The notes: generated from the sequence alone by a model not told the origin. Positions 58,124 to 63,155 are shown, numbered from the stretch's first letter. The stretch: 64,000 nucleotides of DNA from Escherichia phage vB_EcoM_3HA14 (MN342151.1); one strand, 5' to 3'. Numbers and translations: made by a program.

Positions 58124-58199
58124 TGGAGTATCGGAAGGGACTCGAACCCTCATAAACCTGTTTTGCAGACAGGCACATAACCATTTCTGACACCGACAC
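58124..58199 (-). tRNA. tRNA-Cys (GCA)
   Basis: manual fold: acceptor GTGTCGG/CCGATAC, anticodon loop CTGCAAA, T-loop TTCGAGT, U73, encoded CCA. Confidence 0.7.
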
Positions 58200-58205
58200 A
58201 TAATT

Positions 58206-58298
58206 TGGAGGAAGATACCAGACTTGAACTGGTACGCCGATTTCTCGGTTACTGGCAGTTTAGCAAACTGCTCCCTTACCTTTTAGGGTTAATCTTCC
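58206..58298 (-). tRNA. tRNA-Ser (GCU), long variable arm
   Basis: acceptor GGAAGAT/ATCTTCC, anticodon loop TTGCTAA, variable-arm hairpin, T-arm ACCAG-TTCAAGT-CTGGT. Confidence 0.7.
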
Positions 58299-58299
58299 A

Positions 58300-59034
58300 T
58301 TATTTGTTCAGAGCTTCTTTCATCTCTGGAGTTGCGATAGTATCAATCACACCAGTTTTACATGAATCATCAAACCAGCTTGGTAGAACATTCGCAAGGA
58401 AACCATTAATATTTGTTTTCAGATATTCTGCAATCAGTGCTGCTTCATCTGCAATCATCTGAGTTACTTCGTTAGCATATGCAGTAATCTTTGCAATACC
58501 CTCATTAATCGCTGTAACGGCCTGTGTAGCGAGTTCAGAGATTGTATCTAGTCCTTGGTCGATTGCATCTTGCAAATCGCTTAGAACGCCATTTACAGCG
58601 TCTATGGAGGTATTAATCAAATCCATCGCTTTATTACCGTACTCGGTAGCTACGCCCATGATACCGCTAAACGGTGTACATCCAACCTGTTCACCTGCTG
58701 CTCCCATAACGTTAGAGTAACCTTTAGCTACTTGCATACGTTGTGAAAACTCATCTACAGACTTTTGTCCATACTCAGTAAGTGTACTTGTCGTTGAAGT
58801 TGTACTTCCAAGGCTTGTTGTGAAGCTTCCTAATAAGGCTGTTGTCAGTCCAGCAGCAACTAAAATCTGTTGTGTAGCTGGGTCTGTTACAGAACTAATT
58901 GAGTTAACTAATGATTGAGAGGCAGCTATAGTACCACCAAGAACTGCTGCACCAGTAATAAGAGGGTTTGAAAAACCATTACCAGTTTTAAGGAGATTAA
59001 AAATCTCTTTACTTTGTTCTGTCATCTCTTTCAT
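58300..59034 (-). CDS. hypothetical Ala/Thr/Ser-rich protein embedded in tRNA array
   Basis: ORF track start (GTG at 59097) would overlap a tRNA; trimmed to in-frame ATG at 59032-59034 with AGGTG RBS. Confidence 0.4.
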   Translation of the reverse strand: MKEMTEQSKEIFNLLKTGNGFSNPLITGAAVLGGTIAASQSLVNSISSVTDPATQQILVAAGLTTALLGSFTTSLGSTTSTTSTLTEYGQKSVDEFSQRMQVAKGYSNVMGAAGEQVGCTPFSGIMGVATEYGNKAMDLINTSIDAVNGVLSDLQDAIDQGLDTISELATQAVTAINEGIAKITAYANEVTQMIADEAALIAEYLKTNINGFLANVLPSWFDDSCKTGVIDTIATPEMKEALNK

Positions 59035-59050
59035 TATGCACCTATAAAGT

Positions 59051-59127
59051 TGGTAGCCCATCGGGATTTGAACCCTGTTCTCATGTTTTTCAGACACGCG
59101 CTTTAACCATATAAGCTAATTGAGCTA
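59051..59127 (-). tRNA. tRNA-Phe (GAA), tentative
   Basis: anticodon loop CTGAAAA and T-loop TTCAAAT clear; acceptor and T-stem pairings imperfect in manual fold. Confidence 0.45.
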
Positions 59128-59133
59128 TTAAAT

Positions 59134-59210
59134 TGGGGTGACCTACGGGAATCGAACCCGTATAGACCATGTTCACAGCATGGGTCATTATCCATTTATG
59201 ATAAGGCCAC
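59134..59210 (-). tRNA. tRNA-His (GUG)
   Basis: acceptor GTGGCCT/AGGTCAC, anticodon stem CCATG/CATGG with loop CTGTGAA, C73. Confidence 0.7.
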
Positions 59211-59241
59211 ATTTAAGGACTCTCGTAAGAATCCTTAGAAG

Positions 59242-59317
59242 TGGCAGCAGTATAAGGATTTGAACCTTAATCTTTCAGCTTCAGAGGCTGGAGCATTGCC
59301 AGTTATGCTATACTGCT
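59242..59317 (-). tRNA. tRNA-Gln (CUG)
   Basis: 76 nt, standard numbering fits; anticodon loop CTCTGAA; G73. Confidence 0.65.
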
Positions 59318-59323
59318 AATATT

Positions 59324-59402
59324 TGGTACTCCATATCGGATTCGAACCGATACATAACACAGATTTTAAATCTGGCCTCTCTGCCAATTGGAGTAATGGA
59401 GC
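59324..59402 (-). tRNA. tRNA with anticodon UAA (Leu by anticodon), short variable arm
   Basis: anticodon stem CAGA/TCTG, loop TTTAAAA; T-arm ATCGG-TTCGAAT-CCGAT; A73; variable region only about 7 nt. Confidence 0.45.
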
Positions 59403-59404
59403 AT

Positions 59405-59480
59405 TGGCGGGGGATGATGGAATTGAACCATCTTCTTCGATTTCAAAGACCGAGGTTTTAACCTTGTAAACTAATCCCCT
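59405..59480 (-). tRNA. tRNA-Gln (UUG)
   Basis: anticodon stem TCGGT/ATCGA, loop CTTTGAA; T-arm GATGG-TTCAATT-CCATC; G73. Confidence 0.55.
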
Positions 59481-59706
59481 AACGAACTCTTGAAAGAATA
59501 TATGCGTTATTGCAAGTATCCTTATTTTCAGGTAGTGATGTTTCGAAGATAACTTGCTTAAGTTCTAATCCAGCAAAGTTATAAACAACCTTTCTAACTT
59601 CTAACGGGTCACATTGCCAACCAACCGCTATAAAGAAAGTATCTCCAAATCTACCTGTTTCAATCTTGTGGTCATCTTTATGTTTTTCAACTATGAGTTT
59701 ATACAT
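59479..59706 (-). CDS. hypothetical small protein within tRNA array
   Basis: 75 aa ORF filling the gap between two tRNAs; no motif. Confidence 0.3.
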   Translation of the reverse strand: MYKLIVEKHKDDHKIETGRFGDTFFIAVGWQCDPLEVRKVVYNFAGLELKQVIFETSLPENKDTCNNAYILSRVR

Positions 59707-59724
59707 AATGTTACCTATTAAATT

Positions 59725-59801
59725 TGGTGCAGAATAGAGGATTCGAACCCCTAACTAACAACTTCGTAGGTTGCTGCTCTGTCCATTTGAACTAATTCTG
59801 C
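59725..59801 (-). tRNA. tRNA-Arg (ACG)
   Basis: acceptor GCAGAAT/ATTCTGC, anticodon stem GCAAC/GTTGT, loop CTACGAA. Confidence 0.7.
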
Positions 59802-59979
59802 AATATCCTTTTGAGATTCCTGTCTAGCTCTCTTCTTATCTCTTCTGAGAAAGCGTTTACGATGGTCTGTACGCCATTTGTAATAATCTTCTTCACCATC
59901 ATGCGCTGCACAGCAGCCACAACTTGCAATTTCAACTTTACCATGTCTACCATAAGGCTTCATAGGAATCTCCTAAAAT

Positions 59980-60057
59980 TGGTGTTCCAAGACGGATTCG
60001 AACCGTCACTAATACAAGGTTTGAGCTTGCATCCTCTGCCAATTGGGATACTGGAAC
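59980..60057 (-). tRNA. tRNA with anticodon CAA (Leu by anticodon), short variable arm
   Basis: anticodon stem GCAAG/CTTGT, loop CTCAAAC; T-arm GACGG-TTCGAAT-CCGTC; A73; variable region about 6 nt. Confidence 0.45.
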
Positions 60058-60058
60058 T

Positions 60059-62002: not shown

Positions 62003-62173
62003 ATTAAATCATCTTTGCAGTAACCTACGCAAACCTTGCTAAAGGGTTTGTAGAGTCATCTCTTATAAGCTAATCTAGAATCATGCTCAAGAGACTCTTC
62101 GGCACTCATGGGACGACTGGTTAGCTCCATAAGTCACTGCAAAGAGGATTACCAGACCGTATTTATCTTAAGT

Positions 62174-62242
62174 GCTTCCATTACACCAACACGCCGTAAC
62201 GTGTGAAGGAATCGAACCTTCGCCTTTTCTTTACCAGAGAAA
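62174..62242 (-). other. rearranged tRNA-like fragment
   Basis: T-arm (GAAGG-TTCGATT-CCTTC) and anticodon-like hairpin (TTTCT-CTGGTAA-AGAAA) present, but no matching 5' acceptor strand; a D-arm-like GGTGTAATGGAAGC lies 3' of the T-arm. Confidence 0.3.
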
Positions 62243-62256
62243 TAGATTGTTTATTG

Positions 62257-62285
62257 TTTGCTGTAAACGGTCTTCTGTAAAATTG
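62257..62285. repeat. tRNA-spacer repeat, copy 1 (TTTGCTGTAAACGGTCTTCTGTAAA)
   Basis: near-identical copies at 62801-62825 and 62964-62990, degenerate copy at 62342-62366; shares ACGGTCTTCT with the anticodon arm of tRNA-Arg(UCU). Confidence 0.6.
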
Positions 62286-62426
62286 TTGGAACCAGACCAA
62301 GTTTTAAATTTTTCAAATTAAATTGGCTTGAAATATTAAAATTGCTTGCTGTATTTGGTCTTCTGCTCCTTTAAAGAATACTCGTAAGAACTCTTTAAGG
62401 GAGGGGCTAAAAAGCCCTCTCAAATT

Positions 62427-62503
62427 TGGCGGTTACGAAGGGATTCGAACCCTCATCATCCTCCGTGACAGGGAGGTATTTTGACCAGTTAAACTACATA
62501 ACC
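62427..62503 (-). tRNA. tRNA-Asp (GUC)
   Basis: acceptor GGTTATG/CGTAACC, anticodon stem CCTCC/GGAGG, loop CTGTCAC, G73. Confidence 0.7.
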
Positions 62504-62509
62504 TTTATT

Positions 62510-62597
62510 TGGTGCGCCGTGAAGGAGTCGAACCTCCCGAGTCATAATGACAAGTGATTTACAGTCACCACCGCTTCCATCTACGGGATAACGACGC
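62510..62597 (-). tRNA. tRNA-Tyr (GUA), long variable arm
   Basis: 88 nt; acceptor GCGTCGT/ACGGCGC, anticodon stem GGTGA/TCACT, loop CTGTAAA, variable-arm hairpin GTCAT/ATGAC. Confidence 0.7.
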
Positions 62598-62666
62598 ATT
62601 TTATTCTATTCAGGCTAAGGACTTGCACCTTACAAATCGGTGAGCAATCGCTTCTCTCCCAAATCT

Positions 62667-62743
62667 TGGCGGTTAGTCAGGGATTCGAACCCTGTACCAT
62701 TCGGTTAACAGCCGACCGCACATGCCTTATGTGCTTCCTAACC
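62667..62743 (-). tRNA. tRNA-Asn (GUU)
   Basis: anticodon loop CTGTTAA, T-arm CAGGG-TTCGAAT-CCCTG, G73. Confidence 0.65.
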
Positions 62744-62800
62744 ATGTTAGTATTACCAGACCGTATCTTTTCATTTTTTGCCTATAAAAAATTTTAAGTG

Positions 62801-62825
62801 TTTGCTGTAAACGGCCTTCTGTAAA
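62801..62825. repeat. tRNA-spacer repeat, copy 2
   Basis: tttgctgtaaacggccttctgtaaa; paired upstream with ttaccagaccgtat at 62753-62766. Confidence 0.6.
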
Positions 62826-62827
62826 TT

Positions 62828-62904
62828 TGGAGGCGGGTGTAGGAGTCGAACCTACCGATAACATGCTAATGAGACATGTGAGACACCCTTTCTCTATACC
62901 CGCA
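62828..62904 (-). tRNA. tRNA with CAU anticodon (second Met, initiator or Ile2-type)
   Basis: anticodon stem CATGT/GCATG, loop CTCATTA; 1-72 position mismatched; T-arm GTAGG-TTCGACT-CCTAC. Confidence 0.5.
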
Positions 62905-62963
62905 ATTCTTAATGACCAGACCAAATCTTTTTTGGATTTCTATGCGCGAAATTGAAAAGTTTG

Positions 62964-62990
62964 TTTGCTGTAATTGGTCTTCTGTCAAAA
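62964..62990. repeat. tRNA-spacer repeat, copy 3
   Basis: tttgctgtaattggtcttctgtcaaaa; paired upstream with accagaccaa at 62915-62924. Confidence 0.55.
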
Positions 62991-62991
62991 C

Positions 62992-63069
62992 TGGCATTCC
63001 CGAAGGGACTTGAACCCTCAAACCACACCTTGAAAGGGTGTTGACTTTACCTAATTTGTCTACGGGAAT
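62992..63069 (-). tRNA. tRNA-Glu (UUC)
   Basis: acceptor ATTCCCG/CGGGAAT, anticodon stem ACACC/GGTGT, loop CTTTCAA. Confidence 0.65.
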
Positions 63070-63075
63070 ATAATT

Positions 63076-63155
63076 TGGTCTCCGTTGAAGGATTTGAACC
63101 TTCGACCCCTTGCTCCCAAAGCAAGTGCTGCTAAACCAAACTGAGCTAAACGGAG
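63076..63155 (-). tRNA. tRNA-Pro (UGG)
   Basis: acceptor CTCCGTT/AACGGAG, D-arm GCTC-AGTTTGGTTTA-GCAG, anticodon stem CTTGC/GCAAG, loop TTTGGGA with G37. Confidence 0.7.

Follow-up and report, generated by a model that had tools for sequence, protein, structure and literature searches.

Bacterial YrlA RNAs are Y RNAs that contain a tRNA-like domain with the order V-T-AS-D (Chen et al. 2014, PMC4201824), and in Thermus phage phiLo a true Ro60 binds two adjacent Y-like RNAs (Yrl1 and Yrl2) and the host PNPase (PMC12135203). In Felixounavirus Bas63, gp130 is a Ro60-like protein that is encoded just upstream of the tRNA genes and counters the Ppl defence, and its authors guessed that some of the annotated tRNAs might be Y RNAs (PMC11482910, a 2024 preprint). 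Here we analysed a stretch of 64,000 nucleotides from Escherichia phage vB_EcoM_3HA14 (MN342151.1), hereafter the window, in which a minus-strand tRNA array follows a gene for a Ro60-like protein. The tRNA operon of this Mooglevirus carries four small RNAs, designated modules a to d, which are likely to be ligands of the upstream protein.

Stable non-tRNA RNAs, species 1 and 2, lie inside the tRNA cluster of phage T4. In phage T5 (NC_005859), the stable RNAI, RNAIII and RNAIV and the tRNA-like RNA1 and RNA2 are annotated in the tRNA region. Felix O1 was described with a cluster of 22 tRNAs, which was linked to codon usage (Whichard et al. 2010, PMC3185647). The Class I RNAs of Dictyostelium are about 60 nt long, with a freely covarying 6-bp terminal stem and a variable remainder; an invariant 5' G is paired to the C of a 3' CUGU, and an unpaired 11-nt sequence, CCUUACAGCAA, comes immediately after the 5' stem strand (PMC7919456). 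They were reported to be absent outside Dictyostelia (Kjellin et al. 2021, PMC7919456), and in the preprint version of the same paper GuaB, NdkC, Rnp1A and DDB_G0281243, a protein of unknown function, were pulled down.

The locus in the window resembles Ro60/YrlA/YrlB and phiLo in that a gene for a ring-plus-vWA protein has several small RNAs alongside on the same strand. As in YrlA and YrlB, a helix of the 5' and 3' ends closes the RNAs, one of which has the permuted V-T-AS-D order while the others are short. The protein differs from bacterial Ro60 in being of the DUF2828/DUF7788 type and not TROVE, and its helical part is shorter. The motif here is UUACAGCAA...CUG and not GNCGAAN0-1G or CGAA as in YrlA, and the RNAs are embedded in a tRNA operon, unlike those of bacterial Ro60/YrlA. 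The Rfam YrlA model (RF02553; 69 bits required) gave no match to the window modules even at E<=10; with GNCGAAN0-1G also absent, the modules were rejected as Rfam YrlA members. The Ro-like gene and the spacer RNAs are probably a variant of the Ro60/Y RNA system.

The Ro60-like gene and the four spacer RNAs

The main features of the locus are as follows.

63321-64000, minus strand: 3' part of the Ro60-like gene, encoding the C-terminal 225 aa; the gene continues past the window end.
58124-63155, minus strand: tRNA array, 26 genes for 19 amino acids, from ARAGORN, Rfam RF00005 and the annotation of Shigella phage Sf17.
62913-62987, minus strand: module a, in the Glu-Met spacer; outer helix TGAC/GTCA, inner helix AGACCAA/TTGGTCT, single-stranded TTACAGCAA.
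62753-62824, minus strand: module b, in the Met-Asn spacer; outer helix TTAC/GTAA, inner helix AGGCCGT/ACGGTCT with one G.U, TTACAGCAA.
62288-62369, minus strand: module c; outer helix GGAGC/GTTCC, inner helix AGACCAA/TTGGTCT, ATACAGCAA.
62149-62280, minus strand: module d; the same terminal helices and TTACAGCAA, enclosing a permuted tRNA-like domain.

The part of the Ro-like protein that lies in the window matched DUF7788 and, weakly, VWA_2, and contains the DxSxS metal ion-dependent adhesion site (MIDAS) motif as DVSSSM. The complete Sf17 homologue (YP_009618699) has 472 aa, in which Pfam found DUF2828 and DUF7788 only and no TROVE. A phmmer search of the protein against PDB sequences matched no Ro60 and no chain at all, and a sequence-level link to Ro60 was therefore rejected. 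When a modelled full-length homologue (44% identical) was compared by Foldseek, the top four matches were all Ro60, in the order 9kop (E 1.6e-9, template modelling score 0.54-0.56), 1yvr, 2nvo and 9nf8. The Ro60-type layout, a helical-repeat ring followed by a vWA domain with the MIDAS motif, is present. The model indicates that the DUF2828+vWA protein encoded upstream of the array has a Ro60-like fold.

The modules were recognised as a minus-strand repeat consisting of AGAAGRCCNNWTACAGCAARCA and then, 35-95 nt on, NNGGTCTGG, of which the window holds 4 copies against 0.01 expected. The NN dinucleotides are complementary inside each copy (AA/TT, GT/AC, AA/TT and GT/AC). In each copy, an outer helix of 4-5 bp is followed by an AGA:G internal loop and a 7-bp inner helix, and then by the unpaired UUACAGCAA. 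The outer helices differ in sequence yet stay complementary (TGAC/GTCA, TTAC/GTAA, GGAGC/GTTCC). Common to all four modules are a terminal helix that covaries, UUACAGCAA as a single strand, and CUG at the 3' side. All are on the strand of the Ro-like gene, 334-1172 nt beyond its stop codon. Modules a and b take up nearly all of the Glu-Met and Met-Asn spacers, and ordinary tRNA end-processing would therefore release them; modules c and d sit in the 424-nt gap from Asp to Lys(ttt). Felix O1 and other relatives have an orthologue of every module at the corresponding position, and the changes among the relatives are G.U-compatible on the minus strand only.

Four elements follow one another inside module d: a V hairpin, a T arm without mismatches (GAAGG-TTCGATT-CCTTC), a closed hairpin in the place of an acceptor stem, and a D arm that carries GG. 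Its minimum-free-energy fold yields the V-T-AS-D four-way junction unaided. Across six distinct orthologues the acceptor-like hairpin occurs in three complementary versions that differ entirely in sequence (ACACG/CGTGT, ACTCG/CGAGT and CCCTTC/GAAGGG), and 3 compensatory pairs were found in it in the RNAalifold consensus of the module. The Rfam tRNA model (RF00005, gathering score 29 bits) scored 28.8 bits on 62197-62271, just below threshold. The long tRNA-like form recurs in Klebsiella phage FBKp34 and in a mycobacteriophage, and the Klebsiella counterpart of module d matched Rfam YrlA (RF02553) with 39.6 bits (E 3e-5).

The converse of module d was seen in oversized 'tRNAs' of 114-122 nt in Klebsiella FBKp34 (L012 6503-6616), Aeromonas LAh_9 (L014 1834-1950) and Aeh1 (L025 9151-9272), in which an internal closed hairpin is followed by a UUACAGCA-like sequence. 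Judged from their sequences, they would be tRNAs that carry a putative Ro-like docking site.

The RNA signature in other phages and in Dictyostelium

By tblastn, homologues of the Ro-like protein were found in 709 phage records from very different hosts, and the annotators of mycobacteriophages name them 'Ro-like RNA binding protein'. The DUF2828 Ro60-like family has members in tailed phages from six or more bacterial phyla and in eukaryotes as well: a similarity to an Arabidopsis protein is noted in the Aeh1 record, and the papers that name the domain concern plants and a tardigrade. The Ro-like gene lies in or beside a tRNA cluster in Klebsiella FBKp34, Listeria LMSP-25, Campylobacter CP81, Pseudomonas Milchi, Bacillus Tsamsa and Enterococcus Porthos. 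RNA repair genes lie near it in Listeria LMSP-25 (an RtcB-type tRNA splicing ligase) and Aeromonas LAh_9 (RNA ligase 2). The Listeria phage also has a match to ROOL RNA, which is flanked by tRNAs and precedes the Ro-like gene by about 1 kb (L016 2422-2973; 88.5 bits, E 2e-16, threshold 99.1).

To count the RNA in these loci, a descriptor was used that requires a 7-bp stem without mismatches, in which the 5' strand is followed by [HWR]CAGCA and the 3' strand by G; the counts were compared with those in shuffles.

Aeromonas LAh_9: 6 descriptor copies; shuffle mean 0.09.
Mycobacteriophage Wigglewiggle: 4 descriptor copies, 3 of them beside the gene; shuffle mean 0.12.
Listeria LMSP-25: 2 descriptor copies; shuffle mean 0.02.
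Campylobacter CP81: 2 descriptor copies; shuffle mean 0.07.
Klebsiella FBKp34: 2 descriptor copies; shuffle mean 0.14.

All gene-side copies share the strand of the gene, and all but one Aeromonas copy (L014 421-474) are no more than about 1 kb away. The fourth Wigglewiggle match, on the opposite strand and about 1.8 kb away, looks like chance. When 22 short copies from six lineages were aligned, 99.4% of the cells in the terminal helix were paired and 7 of the 7 pairs had changed on both sides, with a covariation score of 1.01 compared with 0.22 in shuffles and at most 0.16 in slid registers. This covariation count is partly circular, because the 3' strands were located by complementarity; the independent evidence for the terminal helix is the shuffle test of the descriptor together with the results of searches with R1, a covariance model built from the 22-copy, six-lineage alignment.

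In the 64-kb window, R1 gave E < 0.1 for the four modules only. Modules a (47.7 bits, E 9e-9), b (52.1 bits) and c (45.3 bits) were training-set copies and module d, with 35.7 bits (E 9e-6), was not. A further R1 match at 23984-24049 (18.3 bits, E 0.2), together with a descriptor match at 24047-23987, was rejected as chance; shuffles gave about 1 per 64 kb. Copies outside the training set were found in four more lineages, all on the strand of the Ro-like gene. Pseudomonas Milchi has four, in tRNA spacers. Staphylococcus S-CoN_Ph8 has three in tandem, the first 18 nt past the Ro-like stop codon, and the nearest tRNA is about 2 kb away. Synechococcus BUCT-ZZ01 has one, about 100 nt before the Ro-like gene, and Bacillus Tsamsa has two between the tRNA array and the Ro-like gene. 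The Ro-like gene and an R1 RNA thus occur together in ten phage lineages, four of them outside the training set. R1 found nothing at E <= 1 in the Ro-like loci of Enterococcus, Fusobacterium and Erwinia jumbo phages, and weak matches only in Vibrio phi-ST2 and Aeromonas Aeh1. In the weak module of phi-ST2 (L013 4421-4468, E 0.039) the 3' stem strand lies over the start codon of the Ro-like gene, an overlap that, from the sequence, would allow autoregulation.

In 30 kb of the tRNA region of phage T5, which has 25 annotated tRNAs, R1 found nothing at E <= 10. The modules would share with the T5 RNAs the character of small stable RNAs, some of them tRNA-like, which would be co-transcribed with phage tRNAs and freed by tRNA processing. 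They differ from the T5 RNAs in showing no sequence or model similarity to them (0 R1 matches), and no Ro-like gene is annotated in the 30-kb T5 stretch. In Wigglewiggle, S-CoN_Ph8 and BUCT-ZZ01 the modules lie beside the Ro-like gene with no adjacent tRNA. The absence from T5 and the copies away from tRNAs together indicate that the element tracks the Ro-like gene and not tRNA arrays generally.

These two observations also bear on a simpler explanation, in which the array is a plain tRNA operon and its spacer elements are processing or stability signals, such as guide hairpins for RNase P or RNase E, with no tie to the Ro-like protein, whose gene would lie next to them by chance in this phage. 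Such signals would be expected where modules a and b are found, since both stop 8-9 nt short of a tRNA 5' end and fill their spacers; the Milchi copies likewise lie in tRNA spacers, and other stable spacer hairpins with UACG tetraloops exist. However, signals of this kind should not stand beside a Ro-like gene that has no tRNA next to it, as they do in three phages, nor be missing from the whole T5 array, and only 4 spacers of the window carry the module. We therefore consider this explanation unlikely. A second explanation, that the modules are decaying relics of tRNA-derived repeats or of a small mobile repeat and have no function now, draws on the tRNA-like arms of module d, on the other tRNA-like remnants and the indel in the array, and on the homing endonuclease genes that invade these arrays in relatives. 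Decay is hard to reconcile with four modules whose positions stay constant from Mooglevirus to Felix O1 and whose helices have been maintained by compensatory and G.U changes, or with a motif and architecture that recur on unrelated stem sequences in phages of Actinobacteria, Firmicutes, Cyanobacteria and Campylobacter, and it appears very improbable.

RF01414, the Rfam model of the Class I RNAs, was the only Rfam family that matched the modules repeatedly, with 11 matches of 17.6-29.8 bits. Three of them are in the window (17.6-22.2 bits; 21.3 bits for module a and 22.2 bits for module b), and eight are in the Aeromonas, Klebsiella and Listeria loci (23.1-29.8 bits, the highest in Aeromonas). 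Their boundaries coincide with those of the R1 matches. The gathering score of 41.5 bits was reached by none of the 11, and the E-values of eight of the matches were 0.14-7.3 when corrected for 4227 families; for RF01414 alone, tested after the idea had arisen in the window, we infer E-values about 4000 times smaller.

The likeness extends to structure. Like Class I RNAs, the modules are about 60 nt long (the core is 61-69 nt in a to c), have a freely covarying terminal stem (7 bp here), a conserved G close to the 5' end that pairs with the C in a 3' CUG(U), and AG...CUG(G/U) termini. Straight after the 5' stem strand comes an unpaired (CC)UUACAGCAA, in which 9 of 11 motif bases are identical to those of Class I, and the remainder is variable and A/U-rich; the genes are clustered in both. 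The modules differ from Class I RNAs in their phage hosts, in having no Dictyostelium upstream sequence element (DUSE) promoter and in the extra outer helix of the Ounavirinae copies. In Dictyostelium the only direct binder shown for Class I is Rnp1A, an RNA recognition motif protein that is not Ro-like. Large protein searches for a Dictyostelium link returned unnamed metagenomic and phage proteins only, and the literature on DUF2828, DDB_G0281243 and the motif string was uninformative. We suggest, tentatively, that the UUACAGCAA-stem RNAs are the ligands of a DUF2828 branch of Ro60-like proteins, with the Class I RNAs as eukaryotic members that a Dictyostelium DUF2828 protein might bind. Common ancestry of the phage RNAs and Class I RNAs, or a shared protein partner, is a hypothesis that we regard as possible and still doubtful.

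The tRNA genes and the rest of the interval

ARAGORN over the whole window called 26 tRNA genes, on the minus strand only and all within 58124-63155. The original prediction, made from the sequence alone, had proposed about 26 minus-strand tRNAs, and the ARAGORN set was exactly the same, every anticodon being right. The isotypes are Cys, Ser (two), Phe, His, Gln (two), Leu (three), Arg (two), Val, Thr, Gly, Ala, Lys (two), Ile, Met (two), Asp, Tyr, Asn, Glu and Pro; no Trp tRNA was among the 26 calls. With default filters 23 of the 26 exceeded the RF00005 gathering score, and with laxer filters tRNA-His (49.3 bits) and the second tRNA-Met (31.7 bits) passed as well. Far from most covariance scores being below threshold, 25 of the 26 thus scored 31.7-67 bits. 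The sole gene under the threshold was tRNA-Tyr (22.3 bits), which was called by ARAGORN and also by tRNAscan-SE in the Sf17 record. The ARAGORN cloverleaves bore out the long variable arms of both tRNA-Ser and of tRNA-Tyr and the G3.U70 pair of tRNA-Ala, all of which had been predicted.

A CCA end is encoded by 25 of the 26 genes, and tRNA-Ser(tga) (60888-60977, minus strand) is the only gene of the array with a CCU end. Owing to the long arm, its Rfam score for tRNA-Sec (37.5 bits) exceeded that for tRNA (33.4 bits); the tRNA-Sec assignment, which falls short of the threshold of 47, was rejected as an artefact. The three tRNA-Leu (UAA, CAA and UAG; 59324-59402, 59980-60057 and 60558-60634, minus strand) are 77-79 nt long and have no long variable arm of the kind usual in bacterial tRNA-Leu. 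They retain the tRNA-Leu-type D loop (CAAUUGGCAGA) and A73. Charging by leucyl-tRNA synthetase would be plausible. Short-arm tRNA-Leu are also present in Felix O1, and Leu(TAG) of Klebsiella phage FBKp34 is 78 nt long; a literature search on phage tRNA-Leu without the long arm found no relevant paper.

In E. coli, G-1 is the main identity mark for histidyl-tRNA synthetase. The tRNA-His of the array (59134-59210, minus strand) has a C73 discriminator and a U at -1, hence no encoded G-1, and its Felix O1 orthologue was flagged 'pseudo' by tRNAscan. The tRNA-Met between modules a and b (62828-62904, minus strand) has an initiator-like U1xC72 mismatch, U73 and a pyrimidine at 37, and it is without the three anticodon-stem G-C pairs; of the 26 genes only tRNA-Tyr scored lower in Rfam than its 31.7 bits. 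A reading of the second CAU tRNA as tRNA-Ile2 (lysidine) has little in its favour, since the phage seldom uses AUA (2.1 per 1000) and would not need such a tRNA. Other candidates were rejected. Those for tmRNA (Rfam tmRNA_permuted with 36.5 bits at 61565-61752, alpha_tmRNA and relaxed ARAGORN calls) were all sub-threshold and overlapped tRNA genes, and their tag peptides were arbitrary. An intron-containing tRNA-Ala at 61239-61386 (ARAGORN -i) overlapped tRNA-Arg(tct). Many plus-strand 'tRNAs' called at relaxed threshold were mirror images of real genes, and the plus-strand Plastid-ycf2 matches in Rfam were the same artefact.

The region 57800-63400 is 99.1% identical over its full length (5.6 kb) to Shigella phage Sf17 (Mooglevirus, Ounavirinae; NC_042076.1). 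It matched 304 phage records, the majority from Felix-O1-like phages that infect Escherichia, Salmonella, Shigella and Citrobacter, and at least 80% of the query was covered in 182 records. The RefSeq record of Sf17 annotates the identical 26 tRNAs and three open reading frames (ORFs) within the array, flanked upstream by an 'RNA-binding protein' (DUF2828) and downstream by a small ORF and the large terminase. The clusters of Sf17 and the Felix-O1-like phages have the same gene order, the same flanking genes and the same codon-usage rationale as the window, and at the level of the tRNAs no difference was found. The tRNA array as such is therefore already known: the same 26 tRNAs are annotated in GenBank for Sf17, and the cluster of Felix O1 was discussed in 2010. 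In the public Felix-O1-like records the four modules and other conserved spacers are unannotated or lie under small 'hypothetical protein' calls. What goes beyond the original prediction is that the array is not only tRNA, that its tRNA-Leu have short arms, and that the Ro60-like gene and four Y-like RNAs belong to the same unit.

The suggestion that the array adapts codon usage was examined in 50 long ORFs of the window (16,505 codons), whose relative synonymous codon usage (RSCU) was compared with that of E. coli for the 25 distinct anticodons. The mean log2 RSCU ratio of phage to E. coli was +0.45 for cognate codons and -0.68 for the others (Mann-Whitney p=0.0086), numbers that are approximate because the E. 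coli codon table was itself approximate. The over-use was clearest for AGA, ACA, CUA, CCA, UCA, GUA, GCA, AAG and UUA. The suggestion passed this simple test, in agreement with the analysis of Felix O1 (PMC3185647).

The test supports codon supply and also leaves room for the replacement of cleaved host tRNAs. In the latter explanation the array would be mainly an anti-defence device, its tRNAs replacing those cut by anticodon nucleases or by retron- or PARIS-type systems, and the Ro-like protein and its RNAs would be counted in the same kit; it is a rival on function only and is compatible with the anatomy described here. The tRNAs of Bas63 are mostly dispensable on laboratory strains and gp130 counters Ppl (PMC11482910), and the idea fits the literature quoted in that paper. 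The set also spans 19 amino acids and serves codons that are not rare (GAA, AAA and AAC), and the Ro-like gene has an RtcB-type ligase near it in LMSP-25 and RNA ligase 2 in LAh_9. The enrichment of cognate codons in the phage genes is, however, nothing that a mainly anti-defence array would need, and we hold this explanation to be possible without preferring it.

The tRNA genes occupy 2036 of the 5032 bases (40%) of 58124-63155, and the rest is made up of three ORFs and of conserved non-coding spacers that total about 1.8 kb. The other features of the interval and its flanks are given below.

58300-59034, minus strand: ORF in the array, 244 aa, DUF7217 (Pfam 6.1e-84), annotated in Sf17.
59479-59706, minus strand: ORF in the array, 75 aa, no family in Pfam.
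59751-59963, minus strand: ORF in the array, 70 aa; its last 51 nt lie over the 5' half of tRNA-Arg(acg).
63302-63274, minus strand: promoter-like TTGACA-17-TAATAT, from the sigma-70 consensus scan between the Ro-like gene and the first tRNA.
63212-63183, minus strand: promoter-like TTGACA-18-TATAGT with extended -10, from the sigma-70 consensus scan.
61649-61677, minus strand: internal promoter-like TTGACA-17-TAAGAT upstream of Arg(tct), a consensus match only.
58091-58032, minus strand: terminator-like imperfect hairpin GCCCTG...CAGGGC plus U6, from the trailer fold (z -6.7).
57966-57943, minus strand: terminator-like hairpin GACGGT-CTCTGC-ACCGTC plus U6, with a 6-bp G+C-rich stem, from the terminator scan.
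61239-61358, minus strand: tRNA-like element with a 7-bp acceptor (GGTCAAG/CTTGACT), a T arm, a GCCA end and an aberrant middle of about 75 nt.
60991-61073, minus strand: second tRNA-like element, with acceptor ATGGGAC/GTCCCAT, a T arm, GCCA and an over-long anticodon-like loop.

The 70-aa ORF has a strong Shine-Dalgarno sequence, and the same overlap with tRNA-Arg(acg) is annotated in Sf17. The number of sigma-70-like sites across the region was not above that in shuffles, and the promoter calls are therefore suggestive only. The terminator scan recovered the hairpin and U6 at 57943-57966 with which the original prediction had ended the array; it missed the hairpin at 58091-58032, which lies upstream of the former and directly after tRNA-Cys, because the loop exceeds the limit of the scan. 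A promoter-like site (58047-58019) lies between the two hairpins.

The long spacers 60978-61367 and 62003-62426 are 79-100% conserved in about 250 Felix-O1-like phages, and annotation of them is very rare. Several spacers fold far below shuffle energies (z -3.1 to -4.7). Those at 62003-62149, 61445-61691 and 60635-60887 (minus strand; z -4.7, -4.2 and -3.7) are conserved in about 250 phages and unannotated, and neither R1 nor any Rfam family matched them. Very stable hairpins at 59214-59237, 62373-62396 and 61447-61480 (minus strand) immediately precede Gln(ctg), module c and Arg(tct), and may be processing or stability elements; two of them have UACG tetraloops in a common loop context, TTCTTACGAG. 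The element at 61239-61358 was called by ARAGORN at relaxed threshold only. In alignments it is an indel of about 120 nt with GCCAATT flanks that is absent from Sf18, and it is an indel-bounded tRNA-like remnant. The element at 60991-61073, which is preceded by a TTGACA-17-TAAGCT promoter-like site, is kept, unannotated, in Felix-O1-like and Pectobacterium phages, as far as Wc4-1. In several GenBank records tiny coding sequences for a 'hypothetical protein' lie over modules or tRNA spacers (L021 6483-6572; L018 8406-8534; ESh20/ESh19) and are probably over-calls.

Proposed mechanism and meaning

From the tRNA genes, the RNA structures with their covariation, the Ro60-like fold of the protein and the association of gene and RNA across phages, all of which the analysis shows, we infer how the modules would be transcribed, processed, bound and used. 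The operon belongs to a Mooglevirus, a Felix-O1-type phage that infects Shigella, E. coli or Citrobacter, and has 26 host-type tRNAs. Transcription would probably start from the sigma-70-like promoters just downstream of the Ro-like gene and from internal ones, and would stop at the two hairpin-plus-U6 sites that precede the packaging genes. RNase P and 3'-end enzymes of the host would free both the tRNAs and the modules. The tRNAs would add decoding of the A/U-ending codons that the phage, with 40% G+C, prefers, and may also replace host tRNAs destroyed by defence nucleases. The four non-tRNA RNAs, which would lie in the first kilobase of the transcript, are predicted to be freed as RNAs of about 65-75 nt (a, b and c) and about 130 nt (d). 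The terminal helix together with the UUACAGCAA and CUG strands would be where the Ro60-like ring docks, much as Ro60 uses the conserved helix of Y RNAs, and module d would show a tRNA-shaped domain to enzymes that recognise tRNA.

In Salmonella, rsr and Y RNAs are in one operon with the RtcB/RtcA repair genes. This operon, the RtcB-type and RNA ligase 2 neighbours of the Ro-like gene, the anti-defence activity of Bas63 gp130 and the association of phiLo Ro60 with PNPase are the reasons for proposing, by analogy, that the ribonucleoprotein plausibly acts in the surveillance, repair or shielding of RNA during infection. The particle would most likely serve the surveillance, repair or protection of tRNA and other RNA and be a counter-measure to host defence.

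What is new at this locus is not the array but its spacers and the upstream gene, that is, a Ro60-like protein with four small RNAs that look cognate to it. Since the four spacer RNAs are specific, previously unannotated and have defined ends and a motif, the guess of the Bas63 authors about Y RNAs becomes directly testable. The protein-RNA pair occurs in phages of Enterobacteria, Klebsiella, Pseudomonas, Aeromonas, Campylobacter, Listeria, Staphylococcus, Bacillus, Mycobacterium and Synechococcus; widespread as it is, it has no Rfam family, and genome annotators often call its RNAs as tiny ORFs. The near-identity of the defining features with those of Class I RNAs raises the concrete question of whether a DUF2828 protein is encoded in Dictyostelium and, if so, whether it binds Class I RNA. 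If the tie is true, the Class I RNAs, which are abundant and developmental and whose mechanism has been open since 2004, would gain phage relatives, and the tRNA operons of phages would be a delivery vehicle for a Ro-type ribonucleoprotein that acts on tRNA and helps to defeat host defence.

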